From positions 28,578 through 92,577 of the forward strand of contig CAZNPX010000006.1 of assembly GCA_964575175.1 (NCBI GenBank): a stretch of DNA of 64,000 nucleotides, given 5' to 3'. Below are positions 35,640-56,001 of this stretch, piece by piece (within the stretch, counting starts at the first letter, position 1; every line of letters begins with the position of its first letter). The position numbers and the translations under genes were made by a program. The notes below the pieces were generated by a model. That model was given only the letters and a program-made list of their open reading frames with translations, was not told the DNA's origin and did not search any database. The DNA is from an uncultured Hyphomicrobiales bacterium (GTDB lineage Bacteria; Pseudomonadota; Alphaproteobacteria; Rhizobiales; Xanthobacteraceae).

Positions 35640-35640
35640 G

Positions 35641-38046
35641 CTAACCTCCAACTTCCATTACGGCTCTTTCCGCAGAGCCTTTGCGTTTTCCGACGAAGGG
35701 ATCGAGCACCAGATCCGTCAGCGCTGCCGCGCCGAAGCTCCTGCCGCGGCGCTCGACGGCGACCTCGCCGTAAAGCGTGGTGCGCTGCGCCGGCGTTCTT
35801 CCGATCGAGGAGACGAGCCGCTCCATGTTCTCGGGGCTCAATTCCTGACCGTGCTGCGTGCCCGCGGCGCGCGAAATGCTTTCGTTCATCAAGGTGCCGC
35901 CGAGATCGTTCGCGCCGCCGTTGAGCAAGCTAGCGGCCCCCTCCGCGCCGACCTTCACCCACGACGCCTGGATGTTTCCGATCAGCGGATTGAAGACGAG
36001 CCTTGCGATCGCGTGCAGCAGGCGCACTTCGCGCCAGGTCGGCCCCTGCCGCGCCTGCCCGCGAAGCGACATCGGCGCTTCCATGTGCACGAAGGGCAGC
36101 GGCACGAATTCGGTGATGCCGCCGGTCCGCTGCTGCAAGTCGCGCAGCGCAAGCAGATGGCGCGCCCAGCTTATCGGGGCTTCCACATGCCCGAACATGA
36201 TCGTCGATGTGGTCGGCAGCCCGCAGCGATGCGCGGCTTCGATGACCGCGAGCCACTCGGCGGCGTCGAGCTTGTCAGGGCAGATTATCTGCCGGATGCC
36301 GTCGTCGAGAATCTCCGCGGCCGTTCCCGGCAGCGATCCCAGACCCTCGTCGCGAAGCATGCCGAGAAAGCGCGCGACCGGAATTCCGAGCGTGGCCGCG
36401 CCCTGCGATATTTCGAGCGGCGAGAAGGCATGGACATGCATCCCCGGCACTTCGTTCTTCACCGCGCGCACCAGATCGATATAGGTCTGGCCGGTGTAAT
36501 GCGGGTTGATGCCGCCCTGCATGCAGACTTCGGTCGCGCCGCGGCCCCATGCCTCGCGCGCGCGCCGCGCCACTTCGCCGAGCGAAATGTCGTAAGGCTT
36601 GCCGCGAAGATGGTCGTGGCTCTTGCCCTTCGAGAACGCGCAGAAGCTGCAGCGGTAGAGGCAGACGTTGGTGTAGTTGATGTTCCGGTTGACGACGTAG
36701 CGGACCATGTCGCCGCTCACGCGACGGCGCAGCTCGTCGGCCGCGGAAACGATCTCGGCGACGCCGGTATCCCGCGCGCCGAACAGCTTCACGATCTCCG
36801 CGTGGGCAAGCCGTTCTCCGGCCTGCGCGCGGTCGAGCAACTTGTCGTAGCTGCCCGGCGCTCCGCCGCTCACCGACGGCGACGGGATCGGTTCCAGCGA
36901 GCCGGGCGACCACGCCTCTTCGCGCGCGAAGCCTTCGCTGTCCGACAATTGCACCAGCTTCGAGAAGGGCTCCGCATCGAACCATTCGCGTTCGAGCGCG
37001 AAACGCGGATAGGCGGCAAGCCGCGGCACGAGCGAGAAGCCGGCCTGCTCCGTCATCGCGCGCAGCTTCGGGATCGCGGGCCACGCGGCTTCGGGATTTA
37101 CGTGATCCACCGTTACCGGGGAGATGCCGCCCCAGTCGTTGATGCCGGCATCGAGCAGGCGCGGATAGTCGGCGTAGCTCAGGTTCGGCGGCACCTGGAT
37201 GTTCATTTCGGCGCCGAAGACGAGGCGCGTGACGGCCGCGGTCCACAACAGATCGTCGAAGCTCGGCTCCTCCGACAGCGCGAGACGGGTGCCGGGCTTG
37301 GCGCGGAAATTCTGGACGATGATTTCCTGGATGTGGCCGTATTGCGCGTGCAGATCGCGCAGCGCGAGCAGCGATTGCACGCGCTCCAGCCGGGTTTCGC
37401 CGATGCCGATGAGAATGCCGCTGGTGAACGGCACCTTCTGCCGCCCGGCCGCGGCGATCATCTCGACACGAACCGCGGGGTCCTTGTCGGGCGAACCGAA
37501 ATGCGCGCCGCCGCGCTCGCACAGCCGCGGCGAAATCGTCTCCAGCATGATGCCTTGCGATACGCTGACGCGCCGCAGCCGCGCGATCTCTTCTTCCTCC
37601 ATCACGCCGGCGTTGACGTGAGGCAACAGCGTCGTGTTGCGCAGGACCAGTTCGCACACCGCCTCGAGATAGGCGTGGGTCGAGGCGTATCCCAAGGCGT
37701 CGAGCGCCTCGCGGGCCGCCGCATAGCGAAGCTCGGGCTTGTCGCCGAGCGTGAAGAGCGCTTCGGTGCAGCCCGCCGCCTCGCCCCTGCGCGCGATCTC
37801 CAGCACTTCATCGGGAGAGAGGTAGGCGCGCTTCAGCCGCTTCGGCGTTTTCGCGAAGGTGCAGTAGCCGCAGGTATCGCGGCACAACTGCGTGAGCGGT
37901 ATGAACACTTTGCGGGAATAGGAAATATTGGTGCCGTGGCCCTCGACCCGGAGCCGCGCCGCGCGCGCAAGCAGCGCCGCCAGCGGAAGGCTCTCGAATT
38001 TCGCCAGCAATTGCTCCGGCGTACAGGCTTCGAATTCCACGCTCAT
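35641..38046 (-). CDS. fbiC: bifunctional FO synthase FbiC (CofG+CofH fusion; 7,8-didemethyl-8-hydroxy-5-deazariboflavin synthase)
   Basis: 801-aa ORF with two radical-SAM motifs (CRDTCGYCTF and CLYRCSFCAF) in tandem CofG-like and CofH-like halves. Confidence 0.93.
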   Translation of the reverse strand: MSVEFEACTPEQLLAKFESLPLAALLARAARLRVEGHGTNISYSRKVFIPLTQLCRDTCGYCTFAKTPKRLKRAYLSPDEVLEIARRGEAAGCTEALFTLGDKPELRYAAAREALDALGYASTHAYLEAVCELVLRNTTLLPHVNAGVMEEEEIARLRRVSVSQGIMLETISPRLCERGGAHFGSPDKDPAVRVEMIAAAGRQKVPFTSGILIGIGETRLERVQSLLALRDLHAQYGHIQEIIVQNFRAKPGTRLALSEEPSFDDLLWTAAVTRLVFGAEMNIQVPPNLSYADYPRLLDAGINDWGGISPVTVDHVNPEAAWPAIPKLRAMTEQAGFSLVPRLAAYPRFALEREWFDAEPFSKLVQLSDSEGFAREEAWSPGSLEPIPSPSVSGGAPGSYDKLLDRAQAGERLAHAEIVKLFGARDTGVAEIVSAADELRRRVSGDMVRYVVNRNINYTNVCLYRCSFCAFSKGKSHDHLRGKPYDISLGEVARRAREAWGRGATEVCMQGGINPHYTGQTYIDLVRAVKNEVPGMHVHAFSPLEISQGAATLGIPVARFLGMLRDEGLGSLPGTAAEILDDGIRQIICPDKLDAAEWLAVIEAAHRCGLPTTSTIMFGHVEAPISWARHLLALRDLQQRTGGITEFVPLPFVHMEAPMSLRGQARQGPTWREVRLLHAIARLVFNPLIGNIQASWVKVGAEGAASLLNGGANDLGGTLMNESISRAAGTQHGQELSPENMERLVSSIGRTPAQRTTLYGEVAVERRGRSFGAAALTDLVLDPFVGKRKGSAERAVMEVGG

Positions 38047-38128
38047 ACCATCAATTCCTGCCGGGCATTCCGCTCATGTCGGGCCGCGCGACACGCGCCG
38101 CATTGCTGCCCTGCGGCGGCCGCAGGAC

Positions 38129-38767
38129 TCACTCGACACGATCGCTCGGTCCCGTCGCCACGTCCGCGACATTGCGCATCGAATAGATCTCTCCAAGGCC
38201 GGCGTAATTGGGGCCGCCGATCCGGCACAACGGGCGGAGCTGCCGCGTGTCGATCTTGTTGTTCTCGCACAAGCCGTCGCGAACGTGAAACATCAATACT
38301 TCGCCGACCAGGAATTTCGAGCCGGTCTCGCCGAATGCGATGTCGTGCCGCAGCGCGCATTCCATACTGATCGGGGCCGCCGCAAGCCGCGGGACCGGGA
38401 CGCGATCGCTCGGCGCGGTTTCCAGATCGAGCAGCGTGGTTTCGCTGACGTCGTAGGGATGCGCGACCGCGCTGAGGTGAACCTTTTCGACCATGGTTTC
38501 GTCGCCGATGTTCACCACGAAACTCTTCCCTTCGAGAATATTCCGGGCGGTGTCCTTCTGCTCGCCGCTGCGAAGCCCGACATTGATCCCGATCATCGGC
38601 GGCTTCGACGAGACGAAGGTGAAGCAACTGAACGGAGCCAGATTGACGATTCCGGCAGCCGACAGCGTCGTCACCCAGGCGATCGGGCGCGGCACCACCA
38701 TTCCCGTCAGCAGCCGGTAAATGTCCTGGGGCGGCATCGGGGCCGGATTGATTTTCATTGCTCGCAT
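38129..38767 (-). CDS. flavin reductase-like (FMN-binding split-barrel) domain protein
   Basis: 212-aa ORF with LLTGMVVPRPIAWVTTLSAAGIVNLAPFSCFTFVSSKPPMIGINV, typical of the flavin-reductase-like domain. Sits directly upstream of fbiC. Confidence 0.8.
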   Translation of the reverse strand: MRAMKINPAPMPPQDIYRLLTGMVVPRPIAWVTTLSAAGIVNLAPFSCFTFVSSKPPMIGINVGLRSGEQKDTARNILEGKSFVVNIGDETMVEKVHLSAVAHPYDVSETTLLDLETAPSDRVPVPRLAAAPISMECALRHDIAFGETGSKFLVGEVLMFHVRDGLCENNKIDTRQLRPLCRIGGPNYAGLGEIYSMRNVADVATGPSDRVE

Positions 38768-38803
38768 ACCATGTTGGACGGGGACCGCGACAGGAGGCCG
38801 AAC

Positions 38804-39607
38804 TCAGGCCACCGACATCTTTTGCCGATCGGAATTCCCGAAAGGCGGCGCCGGCAGCGCGCCCTGCTTGCTCGAAATGATTCCGGCGCAACGCTCGGTG
38901 ACGATCTGCATGTGCTTGTAGAAGTTCTTGTCGTGGCCCTGCTTGTGAATGGCGGAGCTGAGCGCGGCGACGACATCGCCGGAGGCGTCCCGGATCGGGC
39001 AGCCGACGGCATAGATATCGACGAGATTCTCCTCGTCGGAGATCGAGTATCCGCGCTTCAGGACATTCCGCAGGTCGGCCACCAGCGAGCGGGTGTTGAT
39101 GATGCTGTAGGGGGTCAGGCGATTGAGCGAAAGCCGCGGCAACAGCTTCTGCAACTCGGCATCGTTCATCGCCGCGAGCAGGACCTTGCCGGCGGCGGTG
39201 GTATGCAGCTGCCCGGTCACGCCCGTGTTGATGCGCAGCACATACGGCTGCGCGCCCTGGATTGCGTACAGGTACAGCATGACGTTGTCGGAGCGCACGC
39301 AAAGATAGACGTTCAGCCCCTCGCTTTCGGCGAGCTGGTGCAGGTCGTCGTAGCAGGCGTTGTAGAGCGGGTTCGAGCGCGTGTATTTCTGGCCGATCTC
39401 GAAGGTGGTCGGCCCGACGCGGTATCGGCGGGTGGCCGGGTTCTGCTCGAGAAAACCGTCCTCGGCCAATGTCAGCAGCAGGCGCGACGCCTTGCTCTTA
39501 TCGAGCGAAAGCAGGCGGGCGACTTCGCGAACACCAAGCTCGGGACCATGCTCGGCAATGGTCTTCAGAATTTTCAGCCCGTGAGATAGCGACTGATTGA
39601 TTGCCAT
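38804..39607 (-). CDS. IclR family transcriptional regulator
   Basis: N-terminal wHTH (LKILKTIAEHGPELGVREVARLLSLDKSKASRLLLTL) plus an IclR effector domain. Confidence 0.85.
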   Translation of the reverse strand: MAINQSLSHGLKILKTIAEHGPELGVREVARLLSLDKSKASRLLLTLAEDGFLEQNPATRRYRVGPTTFEIGQKYTRSNPLYNACYDDLHQLAESEGLNVYLCVRSDNVMLYLYAIQGAQPYVLRINTGVTGQLHTTAAGKVLLAAMNDAELQKLLPRLSLNRLTPYSIINTRSLVADLRNVLKRGYSISDEENLVDIYAVGCPIRDASGDVVAALSSAIHKQGHDKNFYKHMQIVTERCAGIISSKQGALPAPPFGNSDRQKMSVA

Positions 39608-39616
39608 GATCGGACT

Positions 39617-40399
39617 TTAGTGCCCCCCGGCAGCGCTGGCAGGTGTTGTTTTCTCCCAATACACGACTTTTCGATAGATCGCGCGAACGATGAAGTTGGC
39701 CGTGACGCCGATCAGCGACAGCGTGAAAACCGCGGTGAACATCGCGCCCACGTCGAAGTTCATGGACGACGACTGGATCAGGTGGCCGAGGCCCTGCCTC
39801 GCCGCCAGAAATTCGCCGACCACGGTACCGATCAGTCCCAGCACGACGCTGATCTGGAGACCGGCGAAGATCGAGTTGGCGGCGCTCGGCAGCTTCACGT
39901 CCCAGAAAATGAGGCGGCGCGGCGCCGAGAAGGCGCGATAGAGATCAACCAGATCGGGATTGGCCGAGCGCAGGCCCGTCATCGTGTTGATGAACATCGG
40001 GAAGAAGCAGATCAGCGCCACCAGAACGACCTTGAAGGTCATGCCGAAGCCGAACCAGACCAGCAGCAAAGGCGCGAGCGCCACCTTGGGCATCGACTGG
40101 AAGCCGACGACATAGGGAAAGACGATGCGCTCGGCCAGCACGAACTCCGCGACCAGCGCGCCGAGCAGGAACGCGACGATGCAGCCGAGGAAATATCCGA
40201 GCACCATCTGCGTCAGCGTGATTCCGATATGCGGGAAAATCAGGCCGCTCGAGTAGAGCACCCACGCCGACTTCGCGACCTCGATCGGCCCCGGCAGCAG
40301 GTAACTCGGAACGCCGAAGTATTTCGTGCCGAAGTGCCAGATCAGCAGGAAGCAGACAATGGAGAGGGTGGAAATCGAATATGCCTTGAGCTTGTTCAT
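39617..40399 (-). CDS. ABC transporter permease (NitT/TauT type)
   Basis: 260-aa polytopic ORF, paralogous by eye to the permease at 10146..10913. Confidence 0.85.
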   Translation of the reverse strand: MNKLKAYSISTLSIVCFLLIWHFGTKYFGVPSYLLPGPIEVAKSAWVLYSSGLIFPHIGITLTQMVLGYFLGCIVAFLLGALVAEFVLAERIVFPYVVGFQSMPKVALAPLLLVWFGFGMTFKVVLVALICFFPMFINTMTGLRSANPDLVDLYRAFSAPRRLIFWDVKLPSAANSIFAGLQISVVLGLIGTVVGEFLAARQGLGHLIQSSSMNFDVGAMFTAVFTLSLIGVTANFIVRAIYRKVVYWEKTTPASAAGGH

Positions 40400-40408
40400 C
40401 CCCTGCCC

Positions 40409-41188
40409 TCAATGCATCGCGGAGCTGGCGCCGAGCATCTGCCGGAGCTTGTTGGCGATCGCGCCGAATTCGGGGCTTGCCAGCGTTTCCAGCGTGCGCG
40501 GCCTCGGGATGTTCACGGGCACTTCCAGGATCTTCGTTCCCGGCCGTCCCGACAGTACGACGATCTTGTCCGCGAGGAACACCGCTTCGGGAATCGAATG
40601 CGTGATGAAGATCACCGTCTTGCGGGTGTTGAGCCAGATCGATTGCAGCTCGATGGTCATGCGCTCGCGCGTCAGCGCATCCAGCGCCGCGAAGGGCTCG
40701 TCCATCAGCAGCACCGCCGGATCGTGAATGAGCCCGCGGGCGATGCCCGCGCGCTGCTGCATGCCGCCCGAAAGCTCGCGCGGAAGATGATCGGCGAACT
40801 TGCTCAAGCCGACCAGCTCCAGCAGCTCGCGCGCCCTCGGCACATATTTCGCCGTGGACTGCCCGAGCGCGCGGATCGGCACCAGCACGTTCTCGATCAC
40901 CGTCTTCCATGGCAGCAGCGTGGGCTGCTGGAAGACGATGCCGACATCCGAGCGCGGGCCGACGATGGGCGACGCCGAGAGCTTGGCGACGCCGGACGCC
41001 ACCGGCATCAGGCCGCTCACCACCCGCAGCAGGGTCGATTTTCCGCAGCCGGACGAGCCGATCACGGCGACGAACTCGCCCTTGGCGACGGTGAGATCGA
41101 GGTTTTGCAGGGCCATCAGCGGTCCCTGCGTCGTCTGGTACACGACGGAGACACCGCTGATGTCGAGCGTAGGCACTTCGTTTCGCAT
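40409..41188 (-). CDS. ABC transporter ATP-binding protein
   Basis: Walker A GSSGCGKST, signature LSGGMQQR, Walker B LLLMDEPFAALD. Confidence 0.9.
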   Translation of the reverse strand: MRNEVPTLDISGVSVVYQTTQGPLMALQNLDLTVAKGEFVAVIGSSGCGKSTLLRVVSGLMPVASGVAKLSASPIVGPRSDVGIVFQQPTLLPWKTVIENVLVPIRALGQSTAKYVPRARELLELVGLSKFADHLPRELSGGMQQRAGIARGLIHDPAVLLMDEPFAALDALTRERMTIELQSIWLNTRKTVIFITHSIPEAVFLADKIVVLSGRPGTKILEVPVNIPRPRTLETLASPEFGAIANKLRQMLGASSAMH

Positions 41189-41220
41189 GAGGCTGTTACC
41201 CGGCTCTACAGAAGGCCAAC

Positions 41221-42312
41221 TTACTTATATGCCTTCGCCTTCTGCACGACTTCGTCGCGGCTGAAGCGGTTATACTCGGCCACGAACTGGTTAGTGTAGA
41301 GCGTGTCGAGCGGGATATTCGCGTTCTTTTCGATCAGCCCGCCGAGCTTCAGCGCATCGACGATCAGCTTCCACTCGTTCGCGGTGAATTCGCCGATATT
41401 CTTGTCGTTGCGGCCGAACAGCAGGTTCTCGATCCGCGGCTTCAGAATCGTCATTTCCCGCTTGATGTTTTCGGCTTCGGTGCCGGTGGTCGGGCGCATG
41501 GTCGGATATTCCGCCCAGAACGAGCGAATGCAGCCCTCGAGATTCGCCTGGCAGGCGACGGCGCCCTTCGACATCGCGCGTCCGAACTTCGCGATCAGGT
41601 CCGGCCGGCTCTTGATCATCTCATTGGTGTAGGGGAAGCCGTGGCTCGGGAGGCTCTGATATTCCTTCGGGAACGGGACCAGCCGGATCTTGGTGCCCGA
41701 CAGGCCGAGCGCGACGTGCATCGTGTCCCACAGGTTCAGCGCATCGACCTGCTTGCGGCGGAGCGCCTCGAAGGCAGGCACGCCGGAACCGACGCCCATC
41801 TTCTGCACGCTGTTCCAGTCGACGCCCTGGTTCTGGGCCATCGCCTGCGTCATCGCGATATTGCCGGAGGTCAGCGAGACGAAGCCGACGGTCTTGCCGT
41901 TCAGGTCGCCGAAAGCCTTGATCGGGCTTTCGTCGAGCACCGCAAGCTCCCAGATCGAGCGCGGCAGGTAATTATATGTGAACTGGATCGGAAAGTTCGG
42001 CTTTCCTTCCTGCCGCGAGATCGGCAGCGGCTCCAGGCTCGCGTAGGCGGTGTGGATCGTTCCCTTCAGGAGCTGGGGAATGATCACGCCGGAGCCGGTG
42101 AGCACGATCAGCTCGACGTCGAGTTTTTCCTCGTCGAAGAAGCCGAGCGCCTTGGCGAAGGTGAAATTCGCCACGCCCGAATTGATGGCCGACGGCCACG
42201 CAAAGACGAACTTGTCTTTTGCCTTCGCCTCGGGAGCGGCAATCACGGCCGCAACAGCCAGCGTCAGCATGGCTACCCGGCGGCTCAGACCGCCAAACAT
42301 CGGAAATTTCAT
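41221..42312 (-). CDS. ABC transporter substrate-binding protein (NMT1-like)
   Basis: 363-aa ORF with a signal peptide (...LAVAAVIAAPEAKA). First gene of the transporter-IclR-flavin reductase-fbiC-npdG string. Confidence 0.8.
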   Translation of the reverse strand: MKFPMFGGLSRRVAMLTLAVAAVIAAPEAKAKDKFVFAWPSAINSGVANFTFAKALGFFDEEKLDVELIVLTGSGVIIPQLLKGTIHTAYASLEPLPISRQEGKPNFPIQFTYNYLPRSIWELAVLDESPIKAFGDLNGKTVGFVSLTSGNIAMTQAMAQNQGVDWNSVQKMGVGSGVPAFEALRRKQVDALNLWDTMHVALGLSGTKIRLVPFPKEYQSLPSHGFPYTNEMIKSRPDLIAKFGRAMSKGAVACQANLEGCIRSFWAEYPTMRPTTGTEAENIKREMTILKPRIENLLFGRNDKNIGEFTANEWKLIVDALKLGGLIEKNANIPLDTLYTNQFVAEYNRFSRDEVVQKAKAYK

Positions 42313-42363
42313 TATCGTCCCCCTCAGCTGTGAAAGTGTCTCATTGTATTCTTAAACGTCTCA

Positions 42364-42392
42364 ACTATTGATACGATTAAAGCGCCTGTCAA
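42364..42392 (-). promoter_or_regulatory. sigma70-like promoter candidate TTGACA-N17-AATAGT
   Basis: Read on the minus strand, 52-80 bp upstream of the SBP ATG. The predicted TSS falls on a TGAGAC repeat. Confidence 0.35.
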
Positions 42393-42486
42393 GTTTGCCC
42401 CTGCTGTTTCGGCCGTATTTCGCAGCATAAAATGCCCGAATATTCGGCTTTTTTCGCTCGAACGGCGCCCTTTCCCGGCCGCCCGG

Positions 42487-45400
42487 TCAGGCACCCGGGA
42501 GCCCCTCCACGGCAGCCTCGATCGCCCGCGCAACCACCGTCACGGTGAGTTCCGTCTTGTAGTGATTGTGCTCGAGCGGCAGCGCGCCATAGACCGAGGC
42601 CGCCGCGGCCGCCTCGATGGTCTGCGGCGTCAGCGCGGCGCCGCGCAGGATTTTCTCGCTGTGAACCGCCCGCGCCGGCGTCGGCGCCACGCCGCCGAGC
42701 ACGATGGCGGCGTCCGTCAGTTTCTGCTTCGAGCCCATGAGCCGCACGGCGGCGGAGGCTTCCGCGAAATCGCCGCGCCAGCGGGCATATTTTTCATAAT
42801 GGAAAGACGCGCCGGCGCGCGGCTTCGGAATCTCGATCGCGGTAATCAGTTCGGCCGGTTCGAGCACCGTTTCGCCCGCCCATACATAAAGCTGCTCGAC
42901 GGGAATGCGCCGCGCGCGCTCCGGCCCCGCGGTAACGACCTGGGCATCGAGGCAGGCGAGCATCGGCGCGAGATCCGACACGCAAGGGGCCGCGCACCTG
43001 CCCGCGCCCATGATGGAATGGTGACGATTGTCTCCGAGCACCGCGTAACAGGGACAGGCCGGGCCGGAGAAGCGATAACACGGCGTGGCGGAACGAAAGA
43101 ACCAGCAGCGCTTCTCCTGACAGAGATCGCCGGCCACCGTCGCGCGGTTGCGGATCTGCTGGGTCGCGATCAGCGCAGCACCTTTCGCAAGGCCCAGAAA
43201 ATTCTTTTCGATCAACGCATGCTCGATGAGCGTGCTCACGGTGACGGCCGCGCCGACCTTCAGAAATTCGCCGGCCAGCACGATTTCCTTCACGCCCGGC
43301 GTGTTGCCATAGGCAATCAGTTTCGGCGGCCCATAGACACCCTGTCGGATGCCCGGCAGCAGATCGGTGCCGCCGCCCAGGAACCGGCTTCCTTCGCTGG
43401 CTGATGCCTGCGCCACCGCATCCGCGACCGTGCCGGCGACGACGGTTTCGAACGCGCGCACGCGCGGCCGCGAGCGGCCCAGATACTTGCCCGCCTTCTT
43501 CATCACCGGCGCCATCACGGGATAGAGTTTGCGGACCGCTGCGATCTCGGCGTTGAGCGGCCGCAGATAAGGCTTCAGCGAACGCGCGGGCCTGCCGTTC
43601 TGCGCGATCGCCGCGAGCACCGCCTCGGGCGTGATCGGCAACTTGTGAAAACGAACGCCCACCGCGTCGGCGACCGCATTGGCGACCGCCGCCACGGTCG
43701 CATTGATCGTGGGCTCGCCCGCGGCCTTGGCGCCGAAAGGACCCAGCGCGTCCGCCGTTTCGATGAAGTCGATCGAGATGTTCGGCGTGTCCGCGATCCG
43801 CGGCACACGATAATTGATGAGCGAGCGGTTCACCGGCCGGCCGTTCTCGAACACGACATCCTCGCTGAGCGCCATGCCGACGCCCTGCATGATGCCGCCG
43901 TAGGTCTGCCCTTCGAGCGCGGTCGGATTGATGACGCGGCCGACATCCTGCGCCGAGGCGATGTTGAGAATGGTGACGTGGCCGGTGCCGGGATCGACTT
44001 CGACTTCCACCGCCTGCGCGCCGAAGGCATAAGCCGCCGCATAGTTTCCGTATCCGGTCACCGGATCGGGCCGCTCGAGCCCGATCTCGTAGCGCCCCTC
44101 GACGCGCAGCGTGCCGAAACGCTGCCCGGCCTGGGACAGCGTCAGCTCGCGCCGCTCGTCGTGGGGATGTGAGAAGGTGCCGGCGTCATAGCCGATCTCT
44201 TCGGCGGCGATGTTCCACTCTTCCGCGATGCGCTGCCGCAAGCGCGAAACCAGCTCCTTGCCGGCGGCAATCGCGGCGTTTCCCGTGACGAAGGTGACGC
44301 GCGACGCCGCGCTGCCGAGATCGTCGGGCCCGAGCTCCGTGTCCATGTGAACGACGGAGATTCCTTCCATCGACACGCCGAGCGTCTCCGCCACGAGTTG
44401 CGCGAGAATGGTGTTCTGCCAGGTCCCGGCGTCGGCGGTCTGCGTGAAGATCTGCATTCGCCCGTCGGGTTGCAGCTCGACCGCGATGTTGGAGAAATTT
44501 CCTTCGGCATAAAGCACGCTGCCGCTCGGATGGATCATCGAGGCGATGCCGATGCCGCGATAGGGCGGCAGCTTACCTTTCTTGTCGGCCCAGCCGATCC
44601 GTTCCGCCGCCTTGCGCAGGCAATCGCTGAGGCCGCAGCTCGTGATCTTCCAGCCGAGCGGGGTCAGGTCGCCGGGCTGGTTGGCGATCCGCAAGCGATA
44701 CTCCACCGGATCCAGCTTCAGCCGCGCGGCGATTTCATCGACCTGGGTTTCGATCGCCCAGATGATTCCGGGAGCGCCCATTCCGCGATAGGAGCCGCCC
44801 GGCAACTTGTTCGTATAGACGAGTTTCGCGCGCACGCCTGCCGCGCCCACGCGATAGAGATTGGCGGTGCGCTGCCGCACGGCGGAAACGTAAACGGGGC
44901 CCATGTGCGTATAGGCGCCGTTATCGACAATCGCATCGACCGTGCGCGCGAGAATGTTGCCTTTCGCATCGACCGCGGTGCGCAGCGACATGGATTTCGC
45001 GTGGTCGCTCTTGCCGGCGATGTATTCCTCGTCCCGCGACAGCACGACCTTGACCGGCCTTCCGGTCCGCTTCGAAAGCAGTGCTGCAATCGCGATCTGC
45101 TCAGGCGCCTGCGACTTGCCGCCGAAGCCGCCGCCGATGGCGACGGGGCGGACGACGATCCTGCCGGGCTCCAGATCGAGCACGCGCGCAAGCTCCTTGC
45201 GCACGAAGAACGGCGCCTGGGTGCCGCACCACACTTCCAGCTTGCCGCTTGCCGCATCGAATGACGCGACCGCCGCATTGGTTTCCATGCAGACCGGCCA
45301 GACGACGCCATGCTCGAAGCGGCCCTCGACGATCAAGGCCGCATCCTTGAGTCCCTTCTCGACATCGCCGAGCGATATATCGACGAGCTGGGCGACATTC

Positions 45401-45864
45401 GCGGCGAGCTTGTCGCGGCGCGGGTGAATGTCGGGCGCATTAGGCGCAAGCGCGGCCTCCACCGTGACCGCGGCCCGCTGTTCCCTGTAGCGGATCGCGA
45501 CCGCGCGCACGCCGAGCCAGGCGGCCTGCGCCGATTCCGCCGCGACGGCCGCGACTTCTTCGCCGTAGAAGCGCACCTTGTCGGTCGCCATCGCGTGGCG
45601 GTCGGAATAGGCCGGGCCGTAATTCACGTAGCGCGAGCCGCTGAAATCCGATGCAACGACGGCATCGACCACGCCCGCCACGGCGAGCGCCGGCTTCAGA
45701 TCGATATCGAGAATGTCGGCGGCGGCGTGCGGGCTGCGCAGCACCGCGCAATAGAGCATCCCCGGGAGCACGATGTCGTGCGTGAACTGCGCGGCGCCGG
45801 TGACTTTCGTCCGCGCCTCGATCTGCGGCACGCGCTGCCCGATGGTGCCGAGCGGGCCGCTCAT
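42487..45864 (-). CDS. xanthine-dehydrogenase-family molybdopterin subunit fused to an FAD-binding (CoxM/HcrB-like) subunit with a Cys-rich insertion
   Basis: Start reset to ATG 45864 (ATGA overlap with the upstream 2Fe-2S gene). Residues ~1-750 form the Mo subunit (GGGFGGK, ...GAKAAGEPT...). A ~50-aa linker follows, then the FAD domain (FLGGGTDLLPGIRQG). No stop codon between the two parts. Confidence 0.85.
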   Translation of the reverse strand: MSGPLGTIGQRVPQIEARTKVTGAAQFTHDIVLPGMLYCAVLRSPHAAADILDIDLKPALAVAGVVDAVVASDFSGSRYVNYGPAYSDRHAMATDKVRFYGEEVAAVAAESAQAAWLGVRAVAIRYREQRAAVTVEAALAPNAPDIHPRRDKLAANVAQLVDISLGDVEKGLKDAALIVEGRFEHGVVWPVCMETNAAVASFDAASGKLEVWCGTQAPFFVRKELARVLDLEPGRIVVRPVAIGGGFGGKSQAPEQIAIAALLSKRTGRPVKVVLSRDEEYIAGKSDHAKSMSLRTAVDAKGNILARTVDAIVDNGAYTHMGPVYVSAVRQRTANLYRVGAAGVRAKLVYTNKLPGGSYRGMGAPGIIWAIETQVDEIAARLKLDPVEYRLRIANQPGDLTPLGWKITSCGLSDCLRKAAERIGWADKKGKLPPYRGIGIASMIHPSGSVLYAEGNFSNIAVELQPDGRMQIFTQTADAGTWQNTILAQLVAETLGVSMEGISVVHMDTELGPDDLGSAASRVTFVTGNAAIAAGKELVSRLRQRIAEEWNIAAEEIGYDAGTFSHPHDERRELTLSQAGQRFGTLRVEGRYEIGLERPDPVTGYGNYAAAYAFGAQAVEVEVDPGTGHVTILNIASAQDVGRVINPTALEGQTYGGIMQGVGMALSEDVVFENGRPVNRSLINYRVPRIADTPNISIDFIETADALGPFGAKAAGEPTINATVAAVANAVADAVGVRFHKLPITPEAVLAAIAQNGRPARSLKPYLRPLNAEIAAVRKLYPVMAPVMKKAGKYLGRSRPRVRAFETVVAGTVADAVAQASASEGSRFLGGGTDLLPGIRQGVYGPPKLIAYGNTPGVKEIVLAGEFLKVGAAVTVSTLIEHALIEKNFLGLAKGAALIATQQIRNRATVAGDLCQEKRCWFFRSATPCYRFSGPACPCYAVLGDNRHHSIMGAGRCAAPCVSDLAPMLACLDAQVVTAGPERARRIPVEQLYVWAGETVLEPAELITAIEIPKPRAGASFHYEKYARWRGDFAEASAAVRLMGSKQKLTDAAIVLGGVAPTPARAVHSEKILRGAALTPQTIEAAAAASVYGALPLEHNHYKTELTVTVVARAIEAAVEGLPGA

Positions 45865-46373
45865 GCTGCTTCGGCCACGGCGGCGCGAACCGCTTTCAAT
45901 ATCTGCGCGTAGCCGGTGCAGCGGCAGATGTTGCCCTGCAAGGCGTGCCGAATCGCCTCGTCGCTGGGATCGCGGCGCTTCGCAAGCAGCGCATAGGCGG
46001 ACATGATCATGCCGCTGGTGCAGAAGCCGCACTGAAATCCGCCGTGCTCGATGAACGCGCGCTGAAGCGCATGAAGCGCGCCGTTGCGCTCCAGCCCCTC
46101 GATGGTCTGCACGGAGGAGCCGGACACCGTGCAGGCGAGCGTGACGCAGGAGCAGACCGCGGCATCGTCCAGCATGACGGTGCAGGCGCCGCACTCGCCG
46201 CTGTTGCAGCCCACCTTGGTGCCGCGCAACTGCAAGCGGTCGCGCAGGATGTCGGCCAGCGATTCATGCTGCCCGACGACCAGTTCCCGGTCGGCGCCAT
46301 TCACCGACAGGCGAATTGCGGTCGATCCGCTTTCGCTTTCCGGTTGGCTCGGATCGGGCAACACGGCGCTCAT
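45861..46373 (-). CDS. (2Fe-2S)-binding small subunit (module B)
   Basis: Last 170 codons of a spurious 715-aa ORF. Motifs CNSGECGACTV and CGFCTSGM...CRCTGY. ATGA overlaps at both ends. Confidence 0.9.
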   Translation of the reverse strand: MSAVLPDPSQPESESGSTAIRLSVNGADRELVVGQHESLADILRDRLQLRGTKVGCNSGECGACTVMLDDAAVCSCVTLACTVSGSSVQTIEGLERNGALHALQRAFIEHGGFQCGFCTSGMIMSAYALLAKRRDPSDEAIRHALQGNICRCTGYAQILKAVRAAVAEAA

Positions 46374-48634
46374 CCCATCAATATTTTCTCGGCCGTAACC
46401 GGAAGATGCGTGATCCGTTTGCCGCAGGCGGCGGCGACCGCGTTCGCGACCGTCGCCGGCGGCTGCATGCAGGGCGGCTCTCCGACCCCCTTGGCGCCGT
46501 AAGGCCCCGCGACCGACGGATGCGTCACCATGATTACGTCGATCTGCGGCACATCCATGATCGTCGGCATCTTGTAGTCGGTCAGGTTGCCGTTCTGGAC
46601 GTGGCCGTTGACCATGATGAGTTCCTCGAACAGCGCCTGCCCGATGCCCTGCACTGCGCCGCCTTCGAGCTGGCCTTCGAGATAAGTCGGGTTGATCGCG
46701 TAGCCGACATCCTGGGCGACGACGTAGCGATGGATCGTCACCTCGCCCAACACTTCGTCCACGGAAACATCGGTCGCGTGAACGTGGAAGCTCGGCGACG
46801 GCCAGCTCGGCGAGAAATGGTTCTGCACGCGGGAGGCGTCGTGCTCGACCGCCGGCGCGATATAGGTCGCTTCCGCGATCAGCCCGCCACCGCCGGCATT
46901 GGCCTGCGTCGCCAACTCGGCAAACGAAATCTTCTTGTCGCCGTTCCAGAACGCCTTGGCACGCATTTCGAGCGCATCTTCCGCGACATTCAGCGCCTTG
47001 GCCGCGCGCGTGCGCAGCTTCGCGAGCAGGTCGCGCGCCGCCGCGCGCGATGCGTTGGCGACCGCGAACATGGTGCGGCTGCCCTGCGAACCGAAATCGT
47101 AGGGCGTGGTGAGCGAGTCGGCGCTGACGACGTTCACGTCCGTCAGGGCCATGCCCATTTCCTCGGCGACGACCTGCGCCGCGCCGGTCAAGGCGCCGGT
47201 GCCCATTTCGACCACGCCGACCATCATGGTCAGCGTGCCGTCCTGCATCAGTTTCAGATAAGCACCCGACGAGCCGCGCGAGGTCATCCACCAGCCGCAT
47301 GCTAGCCCCTTGCCGCGGTTGCGCGCGGGCCTGCGCTCGCTCCAGCCGATGGCGGCGGCGGCCTTTTCGAGGCACTCCGCAAGCCCGACGCTGGTCATCT
47401 TCTGCCCGTTCACGGCGGTGTCGCCCTCGCGCAGAATGTTGCGCATCCGGATTTCCAGCGGATCGATGCCGAGATCGTCGGCGATCATATCCATCTGCGA
47501 CTCGGAGGCGAAATTTGGCATGGGCCCCGAAGGCGCGCGCACCGAACCGTTCGGATGATTGTTGGTGTAGACCGCGATGCCTTCGATATGCGCGTTCGGA
47601 ATCCGGTACGGCCCGGAAAGGATCATGGTCGCGGTCGAGGCGACCAGCGGGCCGGAGCCCGAGCAGGCGCCCGCATCGACCACGATGCGGCCCTGCTTCG
47701 CGACGATCCGGCCGTCCCTGTCGACGCCGGTTTTCAACTCGATCGTTGCCGGCTGCCGAAACAGCGCGGCGGTCAATTCCTCTTCGCTGGTGGACATCAC
47801 GCGCACCGGCCGCTTGGCGGCGCGCGCCAGCGCCATCGCATAATGCTCCATGCCGAGCCGCAGCTTGCCGCCGAAACCGCCGCCGATGCCCGGCACGATC
47901 ACGCGGATATGCGACGGCGGCACGCCGAAGATCTCGGCCAGCGTGCTTTGCGTATCGAACAGGAGTTGCGCGTTGCACCACACCGTCGCCTGATCGGGAC
48001 CGGTCCATTGCGCGACCGCGACGCGCGGCTCGGTATAGCCGGCGTGAACCGGGCTGGTCCGGAAGGTGTGCTCGTAGACACGAAAGCTGTTGCGGAAGCC
48101 TTCCTCGACGTCGCCGAACTTGATGACGGTGCGGCCGCAGCGGTTGGCGTCGCGGGAAATGATCGGCGCCGCCTTCAGGTTCTGCCAGTCGGGATGCACG
48201 AGCGGCGCATCGGGCTCGAGTGCCGCGACGGCATCGAAGACCGCGGGCAGCGGCTCATAATCGACCTCGATCGCGCGCAACGCGCGCTCGGCGGCGTCGG
48301 GCGTATCGGCGGCAATCGCCGCGACCGCCTGGCCTACGTGATAGACGCGCTCGGTCGCGAATACCTCGAAGTCCTTGATGAAGTTGCCGAAGCGATTCAG
48401 CTTCTGGCTCGCGCCGGTGACGATGGTCCGCACGCCGGGCATCTTGCGCGCGGCGGCGACATCGATGCGCGTGATTTTCGCGTGCGCGTGCGGGCTGCGC
48501 AGCACGCGGCCGTGCAGCATTCCCGGCAGCGAAAAATCCGACGCATAGACCGCGGCGCCCGTCACCTTGCCGGCGCCGTCGAGCCGGTTCAGCCGTCTTC
48601 CGACGACGTGATAAATTGGAGGAGATGCGTTCAT
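46370..48634 (-). CDS. xanthine-dehydrogenase-family molybdopterin-binding large subunit (module A)
   Basis: Start reset to ATG 48634 (MNASPPIYHVVGRRLNRLDGAGKVTGAAVYASD). GGGFGGK and GAKGVGEPP motifs. ATGA overlap with the 2Fe-2S gene. Confidence 0.9.
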   Translation of the reverse strand: MNASPPIYHVVGRRLNRLDGAGKVTGAAVYASDFSLPGMLHGRVLRSPHAHAKITRIDVAAARKMPGVRTIVTGASQKLNRFGNFIKDFEVFATERVYHVGQAVAAIAADTPDAAERALRAIEVDYEPLPAVFDAVAALEPDAPLVHPDWQNLKAAPIISRDANRCGRTVIKFGDVEEGFRNSFRVYEHTFRTSPVHAGYTEPRVAVAQWTGPDQATVWCNAQLLFDTQSTLAEIFGVPPSHIRVIVPGIGGGFGGKLRLGMEHYAMALARAAKRPVRVMSTSEEELTAALFRQPATIELKTGVDRDGRIVAKQGRIVVDAGACSGSGPLVASTATMILSGPYRIPNAHIEGIAVYTNNHPNGSVRAPSGPMPNFASESQMDMIADDLGIDPLEIRMRNILREGDTAVNGQKMTSVGLAECLEKAAAAIGWSERRPARNRGKGLACGWWMTSRGSSGAYLKLMQDGTLTMMVGVVEMGTGALTGAAQVVAEEMGMALTDVNVVSADSLTTPYDFGSQGSRTMFAVANASRAAARDLLAKLRTRAAKALNVAEDALEMRAKAFWNGDKKISFAELATQANAGGGGLIAEATYIAPAVEHDASRVQNHFSPSWPSPSFHVHATDVSVDEVLGEVTIHRYVVAQDVGYAINPTYLEGQLEGGAVQGIGQALFEELIMVNGHVQNGNLTDYKMPTIMDVPQIDVIMVTHPSVAGPYGAKGVGEPPCMQPPATVANAVAAACGKRITHLPVTAEKILMG

Positions 48635-49107
48635 TTTCCGCTCATCGTTTGGGCGGCTTCGTGCACCGCTTCGACAATCTTGGTGTAGCCGGTGCAGCGG
48701 CAGAGCGTGCCGCACAGGCCTTCGCGGATTTCGTCATGGGTCGGCGAAGGATTTTCCTTCAGGAACCCGGCTGCCGCCATGATCATGCCCGGAATGCAAT
48801 AGCCGCACTGCACCGCGCCGCGATCGAGGAATGCCTGTTGCAGCGCGTGAAGCTTCTCGCCGTCGCCAAGACCTTCGATGGTCGTGATCTCGGCGCCACG
48901 GCATTGCGCGGCCAGAAGGATGCACGAATTGACCACGCGGCCGTTCATGAGCACCGCGCAGACGCCGCACTCGCCTTCCAGGCAGTTCGATTTCGCGCCG
49001 GTCAGCGTCAGCTCGTTGCGCAGCACATCGAGCAGGGTGTCGGACTCGTTCGCCCGCACCTCCCACTGCTCGCCGTTTACCGTCAGGGTCAGTTCATGCA
49101 TCGCCAT
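48631..49107 (-). CDS. (2Fe-2S)-binding small subunit (module A)
   Basis: Motifs CLEGECGVCAV and CGYCIPGM...CRCTGY. Start set to ATG 49107 (alternative 49101), 6 nt after the FAD-subunit stop. Confidence 0.9.
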   Translation of the reverse strand: MAMHELTLTVNGEQWEVRANESDTLLDVLRNELTLTGAKSNCLEGECGVCAVLMNGRVVNSCILLAAQCRGAEITTIEGLGDGEKLHALQQAFLDRGAVQCGYCIPGMIMAAAGFLKENPSPTHDEIREGLCGTLCRCTGYTKIVEAVHEAAQTMSGK

Positions 49108-49112
49108 CACCG

Positions 49113-49970
49113 TCACGAGATTTCCGCGCATTGCGAAATCGCGCGCTTCACCAGTCCTTCGACAACCTTGGTCCGATAGGCCGCGGAGGCGCGCGGATCC
49201 GAGCGCGGGCTGCACTCGGCCTTGGCCTGTTCCGCCGCGCGCGCGATCAGCGCCGCGTCGAGCTTCGCGCCCTCGAGCAGGCGCTCCGCCGCCTTCGCGC
49301 GCAACGGCCGCGGGCCGACCGCGCCGAGCGCGATGCGGGCGCTTTCGCAAATGCCGCCGGCGCTTACCCGAAGGCTTACCGCCGCCGACACCACGGAGAT
49401 TTCCATGGCCTTGCGGCGCCCCACCTTCAGGAACACGCTGCGCGCGCCCTCGCCGGGCCGGTCCAGCTCCACGCCCTCGATCAGTTCGGCGGGCGCGAGC
49501 GTGGTCTTTCCGGAAGTCACGAAGAGATCGTCGATCGCGATCAGGCGTGTGCCACCTGGTCCGCGCGCAACAATTCTTGCATCCAGCGCCAGCAAGGCGA
49601 CCGCGACATCGGCCGCGGGCGAGGCATTCGCGAGATTGCCGCCGACCGTGCCGACATTGCGGATCTGATGCCCGCCGACAACGCGCGCGGCGGCGCGAAG
49701 CGCGGGAAAATCCTGGCTCAGTCCGGAATGCAGTTCCGCGTCCTTATGCGTGCAGAGCGCGCCGATGCGATAGCCGCGCTCATGCGCCTCGATTCCGCGC
49801 AACGACGAAATGCCGGAAAGGTCGATCAGGTGGTCGGCCGTGCGAACGCCGCGGCGGATCTGGATCACCAGATCGGTGCCGCCGGCGATATAGCGCCAGC
49901 CGTCCTTCAATCCCGCCGCCAGTTCCAGCGCGTGCGCGGACGATTTTGCGGAATGCAGATTGAACCTCAT
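49113..49970 (-). CDS. FAD-binding subunit (CoxM-like) of molybdo-hydroxylase (module A)
   Basis: 285-aa ORF with IAGGTDLVIQIRRG and the canonical uninterrupted IRNVGTVGGNLANASPAADVAVALLALDA. Confidence 0.9.
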   Translation of the reverse strand: MRFNLHSAKSSAHALELAAGLKDGWRYIAGGTDLVIQIRRGVRTADHLIDLSGISSLRGIEAHERGYRIGALCTHKDAELHSGLSQDFPALRAAARVVGGHQIRNVGTVGGNLANASPAADVAVALLALDARIVARGPGGTRLIAIDDLFVTSGKTTLAPAELIEGVELDRPGEGARSVFLKVGRRKAMEISVVSAAVSLRVSAGGICESARIALGAVGPRPLRAKAAERLLEGAKLDAALIARAAEQAKAECSPRSDPRASAAYRTKVVEGLVKRAISQCAEIS

Positions 49971-49974
49971 GGCG

Positions 49975-51009
49975 TCAGTTCTTCATGTGCTTCGACGCGG
50001 GCTGCCACGCCTCGGAAACGAAACGCTCAAGCGTCTGCTGAACCGTGACGCCCTTTGCCGGCAGCGCCGAAAGAATGACGCCGCCGATTCCGGCTTCGAA
50101 CAGCGAGATCAATTGCGCCTTGATGTCCCCGGGCGTTCCCACGAGCGAGATGGCCCTGATCATCGCGTCGGAGATTTCCGCGCGGATGGCCTCGTAGGGT
50201 GCGGCACCCTCCTTGTAGGCGACATGCGCGACACTCTCGAGAACCGCCGCCGGAACGGCCAGACCCTGCTGCTCCAGCGTATCGAAATGCGTGCGGCCCG
50301 ATGCGAGCGTGCGCGCGGCGCGCAGCCGCAGCGCGTCGTAGGCGTCGGCCGGATTGTCGCTGAGCGATACGTTCAGGCGCGCGACCAGCCGCACGTCCTG
50401 CGGCTTGCGACCGGCGGCAACGGCCGTCTCCGCGATGCGGGCGGCGAAGGATTTTGCTTCCAGCGCATTGCCGCAGGCTTCCATGATGACGGCATCGGCA
50501 AGTCGCGCGCCGAGCTGCTGCACCTGCGGGCCGTTGCCCGCGAGCCAGACCGGCAAATCCGGCCGCGCCGGCTTGAAGCCGAGCTTGCCGGCCGCGAATT
50601 TCACGATCTCGCCGTCGTAGGAAACCTCGTCGCCGCCCGACATCGCGCGAATGAGTTCAATCGATTCACGCAGCGCGCGCACCGGCTTCGGCCGCGGCGT
50701 GCCCATCTCGGCAAAGCCGGAAACGCCGGCGCCAAGCCCGAGAATCGCGCGGCCGCGCGAAATGTCGTCGAGCGTATGGATCGCCATCGCCGTGAGCGCG
50801 GGGTGGCGGGAAAAGGGATCCGTGACGCAGGGACCGACATTGATCCGCTTCGTCTTCATCGCGATCACGGTGAGCAGCGAATAGACTTCGCGATAGAAGC
50901 GCTCGTCCGCCATCCAGACATCGGTGAAGCCGAGATCTTCAGCGAAGGCGGCAAGGTCCGCGTGAACGAACGGGTCCGAGTGTCCCGCCATCAGGATGCC
51001 GAGCGTCAT
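49975..51009 (-). CDS. LLM-class (luciferase-like) oxidoreductase, probably F420-dependent (Mer-like)
   Basis: 344-aa TIM-barrel LLM pattern (FTDVWMADERF..., ILGLGAG...). F420 specificity is inferred from context only. Confidence 0.8.
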   Translation of the reverse strand: MTLGILMAGHSDPFVHADLAAFAEDLGFTDVWMADERFYREVYSLLTVIAMKTKRINVGPCVTDPFSRHPALTAMAIHTLDDISRGRAILGLGAGVSGFAEMGTPRPKPVRALRESIELIRAMSGGDEVSYDGEIVKFAAGKLGFKPARPDLPVWLAGNGPQVQQLGARLADAVIMEACGNALEAKSFAARIAETAVAAGRKPQDVRLVARLNVSLSDNPADAYDALRLRAARTLASGRTHFDTLEQQGLAVPAAVLESVAHVAYKEGAAPYEAIRAEISDAMIRAISLVGTPGDIKAQLISLFEAGIGGVILSALPAKGVTVQQTLERFVSEAWQPASKHMKN

Positions 51010-52142: not shown

Positions 52143-52379
52143 AGGTGTCTCAATAATTGCGACAAATATCTCATTTTCTGAGACATCATTAGGAACGCCG
52201 GGAGAGTGAGTCAATCCCGGCGCGCGCAATACCTCTGCAAAGCCCGCGTCTGCGCGGCTTCGGCGTGCCTCTATTCGCAGCAGTTGGGGTGTTGCGCGCC
52301 TGGCGCGGAACGGGCGAAGCCCGCGGACGCGCGGGGTCCGCGGACTTCGGCCGGGCAATCGATGCCAGGCGCGAACGAC

Positions 52380-52400
52380 CCGCCGGCGACGTCGGCGGGC
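52380..52400 (-). terminator. GC hairpin just after the tctA stop (possible attenuator/mRNA stabiliser; no U-tract)
   Basis: CCCGCCG-N7-CGGCGGG. A second hairpin, CCGCGGAC-N7-GTCCGCGG, lies at 52321..52343. Confidence 0.3.
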
Positions 52401-52403
52401 GCG

Positions 52404-55308: not shown

Positions 55309-55415
55309 GTTAGCACCTCTTCCCTGTTTCAACCCAGTTCAACACCAAAAGCAGAACCCGCGCACTTCCATCCAATACCGTTTACGGAATACGGAGAAGT
55401 GCATGGCGATCCCGT

Positions 55416-55880: not shown

Positions 55881-55886
55881 CCTGTC

Positions 55887-55903
55887 GTTCCTATTATTGG
55901 AAC
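55887..55903. promoter_or_regulatory. perfect inverted repeat GTTCC-TATTATT-GGAAC
   Basis: Read directly. Begins 7 nt upstream of the RidA ATG and overlaps its AGGAA SD. Downstream of an IclR gene. Confidence 0.3.
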
Positions 55904-56001
55904 ATCGTTCTCACTTTGTAGAATTTGTTTAACCGCTAATCCGGGTCAATGCAACGAATCTCCGAACGGCGTGCCGGCATCAAAGCTGTGCGTTCGGCGC
56001 G

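Follow-up and report, generated by a model that had tools for sequence, protein, structure and literature searches.

The window analysed here, a stretch of 64,000 nucleotides from contig CAZNPX010000006.1 of an uncultured Hyphomicrobiales bacterium (assembly GCA_964575175.1), contains an island (34962..63990) in which genes for cofactor F420 are interleaved with three modules of the xanthine dehydrogenase/xanthine oxidase (XDH/XO) family, here called modules A, B and C, and with three genes for F420-type luciferase-like monooxygenases (LLMs). We focused on module B, which comprises a small iron-sulfur (FeS) subunit and a 1125-residue protein in which the molybdenum (Mo) and flavin adenine dinucleotide (FAD) parts are joined, and in particular on a cysteine-rich insertion within the FAD domain of this fusion. 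An original prediction, made from the letters of the window, had likened the insertion to the [4Fe-4S] loop of 4-hydroxybenzoyl-CoA reductase (subunits HcrA, HcrB and HcrC; hereafter 4-HBCR), and had gone on to suggest that module B may be a reductase drawing on a low-potential donor such as F420H2 or ferredoxin. Our analyses support the homology of the loop but not the step from loop to reductase, and they point to the fused architecture that carries the loop as the novel feature of this locus.

Module B pairs an FeS subunit with a Mo-FAD fusion protein

The listed open reading frame (ORF) of the fusion runs from 42487 to 46194; its true start codon, at 45864, forms an ATGA overlap with the stop codon of the gene before it. 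The Mo domains occupy residues 22-694 and consist of an a/b hammerhead (Ald_Xan_dh_C, PF01315, E = 1.6e-22) and two MoCo-binding domains (MoCoBD_1, PF02738, 1.1e-68; MoCoBD_2, PF20256, 1e-67), and these are followed by FAD_binding_5 (PF00941, 3.4e-34) at residues 804-1015 and CO_deh_flav_C (PF03450, 2.6e-14) at residues 1022-1117. Two motifs, GTQAP with the Gln typical of the family and AKAAGEPT with the catalytic Glu, align with TTQVP and AKEASEG of HcrA, and we take the two residues to be equivalent to Gln767 and Glu1261 of bovine xanthine oxidase. With its Mo domains, FAD module and active-site residues, and with a partner bearing two [2Fe-2S] motifs, module B is, as judged by sequence, a member of the XO/XDH family. 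The fusion described in the original prediction holds for the Mo and FAD parts, whereas the [2Fe-2S] part is a separate gene of 170 codons. No twin-arginine motif was seen by eye at the N-terminus of this FeS subunit (MSAVLPDPSQPESESG / MSAVLPDPSQPESESGSTAIRL). The linker joining the Mo and FAD parts is no low-complexity spacer: its motif (RPxNxEVAxVRxxYP...FP) is kept across phyla, and this conservation suggests that it is structured and packs on the complex.

The module B FeS gene shares ATGA overlaps with both the upstream Mo gene of module A and the fusion gene and, because the three genes are joined in this way, two different XDH-type enzymes are predicted to be translationally coupled within one operon (42487..51009, minus strand; Table 1). 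The modules differ in gene order. Module A is arranged M-S-L, like CoxMSL (S, small FeS subunit; L, large Mo subunit; M, medium FAD subunit), and module B S-L-M; this FeS-Mo-FAD order on the minus strand is as first described, and we take it to be also the order (gamma-alpha-beta) of hcrCAB and hbaBCD. For the upstream genes of the operon (46370..51009) we used gene calls on an identical Logan contig (SRR16797981_14523), which encodes an identical fusion protein, and their synteny is kept in loci L003-L007 (L-numbers denote loci of the genome scan described below).

Table 1 Features of module B, its operon and the surrounding F420 island (window coordinates; aa, residues of the fusion protein or protein length)
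Feature	Coordinates	Strand	Basis and remarks
Mo-FAD fusion gene	42487..45864	-	1125 aa plus stop; five Pfam domains in a single ORF
Mo-pterin part of fusion, aa 1-755	43600..45864	-	Pfam; nearest PDB chain HcrA 1RM6_A
Mo-to-FAD linker, ~47 aa, aa 756-802	43459..43599	-	Motif RPxNxEVAxVRxxYP; alignment of 24 full-length fusions
FAD domain with GGGTDLL flavin motif, aa 803-1125	42490..43458	-	Pfam FAD_binding_5 and CO_deh_flav_C; AlphaFold2 model
Insertion proper, aa 917-958	42991..43116	-	MAFFT; without counterpart in module A and C FAD subunits
C915, probably not a ligand	43120..43122	-	Often Ser, Leu or Arg in protein-database homologues
C920, predicted ligand 1, K-R-C-W	43105..43107	-	Invariant in 99 homologues; PaoB C119, HcrB C122
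C929, predicted ligand 2	43078..43080	-	Invariant in 99 homologues; PaoB C129, second 5Y6Q_B loop Cys
C937, first Cys of C-P-C, extra, clade-specific	43054..43056	-	23/24 fusions
C939, predicted ligand 3, second Cys of C-P-C	43048..43050	-	Invariant in 99 homologues; PaoB C138
C957, predicted ligand 4, G-R-C-A	42994..42996	-	At least 90% of 99 homologues; PaoB C157, HcrB C155
C961, extra, clade-specific	42982..42984	-	15/24 fusions; T, N or A in the rest
Module B small subunit, 170 aa, two [2Fe-2S] motifs	45861..46373	-	Pfam Fer2 (PF00111) and Fer2_2 (PF01799)
Module A Mo subunit	46370..48715	-	Pfam, NCBIfam; ATGA-coupled to module B FeS gene
Module A FeS subunit	Within 46370..51009	-	Pfam, NCBIfam
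Module A FAD subunit, without loop	49113..49970	-	Pfam, NCBIfam
Mer-like LLM, upstream in same operon	49975..51009	-	Pfam, NCBIfam
S-Me-THD-like/DUF917 protein, operon head	51009..52142	-	Distant family member; thiohydantoin desulfurase models give 58 bits (cutoff 450)
NMT1/THI5-type binding protein	41221..42312	-	Pfam
ABC ATPase	40409..41188	-	Pfam
Permease	39617..40399	-	Pfam
fno	34962..35651		
fbiC	35641..38046		
RidA	55416..55880		
cofC	56827..57462		
cofD	57426..58385		
cofE	58382..59137		
F420-type LLM genes	49975..51009, 59212..60216, 60219..61178		
Module C FAD subunit, loop-less	61625..62506		

The insertion belongs to a known family of [4Fe-4S]-binding loops

Translation of the fusion gene recovered the seven cysteines within 42982..43122 (minus strand; C915..C961) at exactly the spacing first reported, C-X4-C-X8-C-X7-C-X-C-X17-C-X3-C. 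The claim that this segment is additional to the two other FAD domains of the window was likewise reproduced by MAFFT, which sets residues 917-958 of the fusion opposite gaps in the FAD subunits of both modules A and C. The insertion (~42 residues) follows the (A/G)GN/DL motif of FAD_binding_5, and the match to this domain takes up 212 residues for 169 profile positions in the fusion; the corresponding matches of modules A and C take up 168-169. Seven cysteines in 47 residues, set against 0.56% Cys in the remaining protein, correspond to a binomial P of ~9e-9.

When the FAD part was compared with all PDB chains using phmmer, the top chains were 5Y6Q_B (medium subunit of an aldehyde oxidase, 2e-40), HcrB (1RM6_B, 1e-31) and PaoB (5G5G_B, 1e-28). 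These three align continuously across the insertion, whereas loop-less chains of the CoxM/CutM type match as two flanking stretches. An AlphaFold2 model of the FAD domain, built on 99 homologues, reached a pLDDT of 93.8 and, in the blocks of the loop, values of 76-91. Used as a Foldseek query, this model gave TM-scores of 0.90 for 5Y6Q_B, 0.86 for 5G5G_B and 0.82 for 1RM6_B, compared with 0.79-0.81 for loop-less medium subunits, so that the structural likeness of the loop is here expressed in TM-scores and not in Cys-Cys geometry. The proposal that the insertion occupies the position of the HcrB [4Fe-4S] loop is borne out by both the sequence and the fold comparison with 1RM6_B.

In 4-HBCR, the corresponding elongation of the beta subunit binds a [4Fe-4S] centre in addition to FAD (PMC10223205, PMC11760930), and the FAD subunit of PaoABC is characterised by a [4Fe-4S] motif of four conserved cysteines (PMC13404670). 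The identification of the insertion, by sequence, as the known [4Fe-4S]-binding loop of the PaoB/YagS, 5Y6Q_B and HcrB subfamily is well supported. Used alone as a phmmer query against 1.84 billion representatives, the loop retrieved 342 clusters (50% identity; E <= 1e-3). Being already known from a large subfamily and recovered so widely, it is neither a discovery in itself nor a marker of reductases. The top match of this loop-only search (P0121; 1225 residues) has 15 separate matched stretches and is presumably an unrelated Cys-rich repeat protein.

Four of the seven cysteines form a predicted PaoB-type ligand set

To ask which cysteines could hold a cluster, we aligned the loop with HcrB and with the 99 homologues and counted the conserved positions. 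Four of the seven cysteines are invariant or nearly so, as would be expected of ligands, but the set differs from that of HcrB. C920, C929, C939 and C957 are each found in 24/24 full-length fusions from genomes of four phyla, and PaoB and 5Y6Q_B possess exactly four loop cysteines, in these same columns. The HcrB loop contains five cysteines in all; it lacks one at the C929 column, places its C138 opposite C939 in the multiple alignment and has an extra cysteine, C146, where the fusion has His948. We take the HcrB cluster ligands to be C122, C138, C146 and C155. The predicted ligand set of the fusion is, by these alignments, PaoB-type and not HcrB-type. A pairwise HMMER alignment with HcrB put C937 opposite C138; this pairing was rejected in favour of C939 because both the multiple alignment and the pairwise alignments with PaoB and 5Y6Q use C939, and because C939 is invariant and C937 is not.

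From the same alignments, C915, C937 and C961 are not predicted to be core ligands, which leaves only four of the seven cysteines as plausible ones. The presence of C915 in 24/24 genome loci is an artefact, since CQEKRCWF was one of the patterns of the genome search and biases the conservation of this residue. C937 falls within a two-residue insertion of the fused clade, at a position missing from PaoB, 5Y6Q_B and HcrB; some homologues of that clade have R, A, S or T in its place. At the C961 column, most YagS/PaoB-like proteins have a His (HPSD motif). C937 and C961 do not strictly co-vary.

The three extra cysteines, with C937 nearly fixed in the fused clade, could be taken to mean that the loop of this clade holds no [4Fe-4S] cluster and is structural, for example a Zn site or a site of disulfides that use the extra cysteines, and the cofactor content of the clade is predicted from homology. 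We consider this very improbable. The four invariant cysteines coincide exactly with the loop cysteines of PaoB and 5Y6Q_B, the predicted fold is the same as that of cluster-binding loops by Foldseek, and disulfides are unlikely because the protein is cytoplasmic, with no twin-arginine translocation (Tat) signal.

The Mo-FAD fusion is a conserved family

A pattern search of one genome per species yielded 28 loci. Proteobacterial hosts include Hyphomicrobiales/Xanthobacteraceae metagenome-assembled genomes (MAGs; 75% identity), Ferrovibrio, Bradyrhizobium, Variovorax, Falsiroseomonas and Lacisediminimonas; the others are a Nitrospinota MAG and the Actinobacteria Geodermatophilus, Streptomyces atratus, Trebonia, Streptosporangium and Georgenia. 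Wherever a locus is cleanly assembled, across 24 other genomes, the Mo and FAD parts form one open frame of ~1125-1190 residues, and the FeS gene adjoins the fusion in the scanned loci. Consistent with this, about 20 of the top 50 loop-only matches are proteins of 1117-1140 residues with the loop at the same position. Fusion-type proteins in the databases bear generic names only, and no Mo/FAD (L-M) fusion of this kind was found in the searchable literature or among database names. As far as these sources show, the joining of Mo and [4Fe-4S]-FAD parts in one polypeptide defines a conserved, undescribed family of Alpha- and Betaproteobacteria, Nitrospinota and Actinobacteria.

In several MAG contigs with 'tig' names (L002/L021, L013, L003 and L030) the fusion gene is broken by frameshifts, giving rise to database 'proteins' of ~380, 142 and 539 residues (e.g. 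P0012) that resemble a MoCoBD_2-FAD half-fusion. As the 539-residue entries result from these frameshifts, the half-fusions are probably assembly artefacts and not another architecture. The family has also given rise to paralogues: a Ferrovibrio chromosome (NZ_OZ257126.1) carries three FeS plus Mo-FAD fusion pairs (L006, L014 and L020), and two fusion paralogues (L005 and L016) are adjacent on JAHBZE010000001.1. One paralogue type always has a Mer-like LLM and a DUF1177 protein ahead of it; we found nothing in the literature on DUF1177.

The loop does not predict the direction of catalysis

We then considered whether module B could be, as originally suggested, a 4-HBCR-type reductase running in reverse, in which a low-potential one-electron donor (e.g. 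ferredoxin) would reduce the [4Fe-4S] cluster and electrons would reach Mo by way of FAD and both [2Fe-2S] clusters, Mo then removing a hydroxyl or oxo group from the substrate. The fusion loop is homologous to that of HcrB, the S-L-M order agrees with that of hcrCAB, and HcrA is the nearest solved Mo subunit (1RM6_A, 379 bits and 34% identity, followed by CoxL at 267 bits). Scores on the NCBIfam equivalog models, however, fall far below the cutoffs for HcrA (TIGR03194, 543.6 against 994.55), HcrB (TIGR03195, 154.5 against 404.55) and HcrC (TIGR03193, 181.4 against 257.8), all three lying at or under ~70% of the cutoff. Module A, with its loop-less FAD subunit, served as a control: its Mo subunit scores 385 bits to HcrA in the PDB and 548 bits on TIGR03194. 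Being equally HcrA-like, this Mo subunit led us to reject HcrA-likeness as a sign of a reductase; by sequence, HcrA is merely the nearest solved structure for a broad clade of Mo subunits.

A rough neighbour-joining tree of FAD domains, calculated without bootstraps and to be read as indicative, groups the loop-bearing domains together against those of modules A and C. In this tree the fusions are monophyletic and sister to the PaoB/5Y6Q_B/YagS radiation, with HcrB outside. One homologue (P0090) groups with HcrB, probably through long-branch attraction; the grouping is suspect because the loop of P0090 is like that of the fused clade.

Characterised enzymes separate the loop from direction. 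The XO family is mostly oxidative, although further reductive members are to be expected (PMC12771579). PaoABC oxidises aldehydes and yet bears the loop (PMC3958847, PMC13404670), as does the 5Y6Q aldehyde oxidase, with the same four cysteines and with FAD subunits that match the fusion as well as or better than HcrB does; UcdCFO/Ucdh, the second reductive dehydroxylase of the family, is loop-less (PMC11760930, PMC12771579). Because an oxidative enzyme has the loop and a reductive one lacks it, reverse electron flow neither requires the loop nor follows from its presence, and the loop does not predict the direction of catalysis. The PaoB-type ligand pattern and the aerobic hosts also speak against a 4-HBCR-type reductase, and the window ORFs that were scanned with Pfam or NCBIfam include no CoA ligase, benzoyl-CoA-pathway enzyme or ferredoxin. 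Taken together, we regard this reading as unlikely; a reductase or F420-linked function gains no support from the loop and is a minority possibility.

The fusion recurs next to transporters, LLMs and F420 genes

The most conserved neighbours of the fusion are the genes of an NMT1-type ABC importer, which lie directly 3' of it in L003-L010, L012 and L014, and in part in L015. Beyond the permease, the window continues with IclR, a flavin reductase, FbiC and Fno. The opposite flank of the operon carries TctCBA, RidA, a further IclR, CofC, CofD, CofE, two F420-type LLMs and the third XDH module, with CoxG. In Variovorax sp. VNK109 (L010, 13980..15434), a Rieske [2Fe-2S] oxygenase and RidA directly follow the fusion-transporter unit, and RidA homologues are found near the fusion in L007, L016 and L019 as well. 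In Falsiroseomonas, DUF1177 and an LLM adjoin the fusion together with an M17 peptidase. With importers, RidA, an oxygenase and proteins resembling amidohydrolases or peptidases as partners, and with aerobes as hosts, the neighbourhood fits the aerobic catabolism of an imported nitrogen-containing compound. The DUF917-type protein at the head of the operon has a homologue that adjoins hydantoinase A in a Betaproteobacteria MAG (L002, 20228..21304), an association that hints at a cyclic amide or hydantoin-like pathway intermediate. Elsewhere in the window, an ORF of 474 codons (18202..19626, minus strand) is coding-like in its third codon positions (GC3 0.84) and has no Pfam match at E <= 1e-5.

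The F420 context noted in the original prediction is present, with fno, fbiC, cofC, cofD and cofE surrounding the three XDH modules, together with the three LLMs. A Mer-like LLM lies near the fusion in ~16/28 loci, and F420 biosynthesis genes are found within 10 kb of it in seven (L003, L016-L020 and L030), in at least three arrangements. In Ferrovibrio (L020), the genes run GntR, LLM, DUF1177, FeS, fusion, CMD, 6PGD-like, FbiC, Fgd, CofE, CofD and CofC, with Fgd scoring 481 bits against a cutoff of 420. Actinobacterial hosts are F420 producers.

These associations raise the possibility that module B is itself coupled to F420, with the FAD of the fusion swapping hydride with the cofactor, either to reduce F420 or to use F420H2 made by Fno or Fgd. 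Binding of F420 is not known from any XDH-type FAD domain. The argument for such coupling is one of co-localisation, and each of the islands carries Mer-like LLMs, canonical users of F420H2, which explain the link. In L009, L010, L012, L014 and the actinobacterial loci, there is neither an LLM nor an F420 gene within 10 kb. Furthermore, F420H2 donates hydride and would do so at FAD, leaving a one-electron [4Fe-4S] centre unexplained, which tells against its proposed role as the low-potential donor. In favour of the proposal, the role of F420 in Proteobacteria is an open question (PMC8498797). We judge direct coupling to F420 improbable, and hold the same view of the broader proposal that the FeS plus Mo-FAD[4Fe-4S] fusions are redox partners of F420 islands in aerobic Proteobacteria, coupling Mo chemistry to the F420 pool through the flavin/[4Fe-4S] module; such coupling may take the form of a substrate:F420 oxidoreductase or of an XO-family reductase driven by F420H2.

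A working model for module B

The reading we favour, with a probability of about 0.6, is that module B is a cytoplasmic XDH-family molybdoenzyme of two polypeptides that carries a PaoB-type [4Fe-4S] cluster on a loop of its FAD domain next to the flavin and works in the oxidative direction. Directly observed are the domain set, the loop's homology and its position, the four conserved cysteines and the conservation of the fusion; the binding of a cluster and the direction of catalysis are predicted from sequence. In this model, the fusion would hold Mo-molybdopterin cytosine dinucleotide and FAD, with the [4Fe-4S] cluster on C920, C929, C939 and C957, and electrons would move along the wire Mo <-> [2Fe-2S] <-> [2Fe-2S] <-> FAD <-> [4Fe-4S]. 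The cluster would act as a one-electron port linking the flavin to an external partner, so that in the oxidative direction electrons would exit through FAD and [4Fe-4S] to a one-electron acceptor. The Mer-like F420-dependent LLMs, supplied with F420H2 by Fno or Fgd, would reduce the hydroxylated intermediate and so provide the reductive steps of the pathway.

For the direction of catalysis taken on its own, an oxidative hydroxylase or dehydrogenase acting on an imported nitrogen-containing compound is the most likely case, at somewhat better than even odds. The fusion is hosted by typical aerobes (Xanthobacteraceae, Ferrovibrio, Variovorax, Bradyrhizobium, Falsiroseomonas and Streptomyces), a Rieske oxygenase and RidA accompany the fusion in Variovorax, an ordinary XDH-type module is coupled in the same operon, and the scanned window ORFs are free of ferredoxin, CoA-ligase and benzoyl-CoA genes. 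Several points weigh on the other side. Cluster binding is predicted from homology; the closest solved Mo subunit is that of a reductase, by 379 to 267 bits, and sequence is silent on direction; the gene order is presumably that of hcrCAB; and the F420-reducing enzymes of the islands, Fno here and Fgd in Ferrovibrio, would also suit a reductase that consumes F420H2.

The novelty of the system lies in its architecture, a conserved FeS plus Mo-FAD[4Fe-4S] fusion that is found repeatedly among Mer-like LLMs in F420 islands. Why Proteobacteria make F420 was listed as an open question in a 2021 review (PMC8498797), and the fusion operons offer a testable catabolic pathway that combines F420-dependent enzymes with molybdenum hydroxylases. 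The fused family would also provide a two-polypeptide system, possibly easier to express, in which to study the function of the PaoB-type cluster. Were the fusions to prove partners of F420, improbable as we hold this to be, they would represent the first physiological role of F420 in aerobic Proteobacteria and a new electron-carrier specificity for the XO family.

Comparison with known systems

The closest counterparts of the fusion FAD domain are found in the periplasmic PaoABC of E. coli (PaoB/YagS, 5G5G) and in the aldehyde oxidase of Methylobacillus sp. KY4400 (5Y6Q), which share the same ~40-residue loop with its four cysteines in the same columns and give the best match in predicted fold. 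The remaining parts are more distant: the Mo part of the fusion scores 175 bits against PaoC and 279.8 against a cutoff of 1180 on NF041671, and the small subunit scores 147.6 against a cutoff of 322 on NF008514, so that neither reaches equivalog level. PaoABC is encoded by separate genes in the order paoA-B-C, whereas module B is S-L-M with L and M fused; PaoA has a Tat leader (PMC3958847), whereas the module B FeS subunit, inspected by eye, has none. Cysteines 915, 937 and 961 and a different genomic context further distinguish the fusion from both enzymes.

HcrCAB/HbaBCD of Thauera aromatica (1RM6) carries its [4Fe-4S] loop at the same site of the FAD module and has the same predicted set of cofactors. 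Its alpha and beta subunits are separate where those of module B are fused, and module B has aerobic hosts and a scanned context free of CoA-thioester, benzoyl-CoA and ferredoxin genes. UcdCFO/Ucdh of Enterocloster has 4-HBCR as its closest characterised relative, at ~33% identity (PMC12771579), a distance comparable to that between the fusion and HcrA; unlike the fusion, it is reductive and loop-less (PMC11760930), consists of three separate subunits and comes from an anaerobic gut Firmicute. In the classical molybdenum hydroxylases, including CoxSML/CutSML, QorSML and 6-hydroxypseudooxynicotine dehydrogenase as well as modules A and C of the window, the FAD subunit is loop-less and each subunit is a polypeptide of its own, with M-S-L as the usual order; with these enzymes, the fusion enzyme shares all three domain types and the wire Mo-[2Fe-2S]2-FAD.

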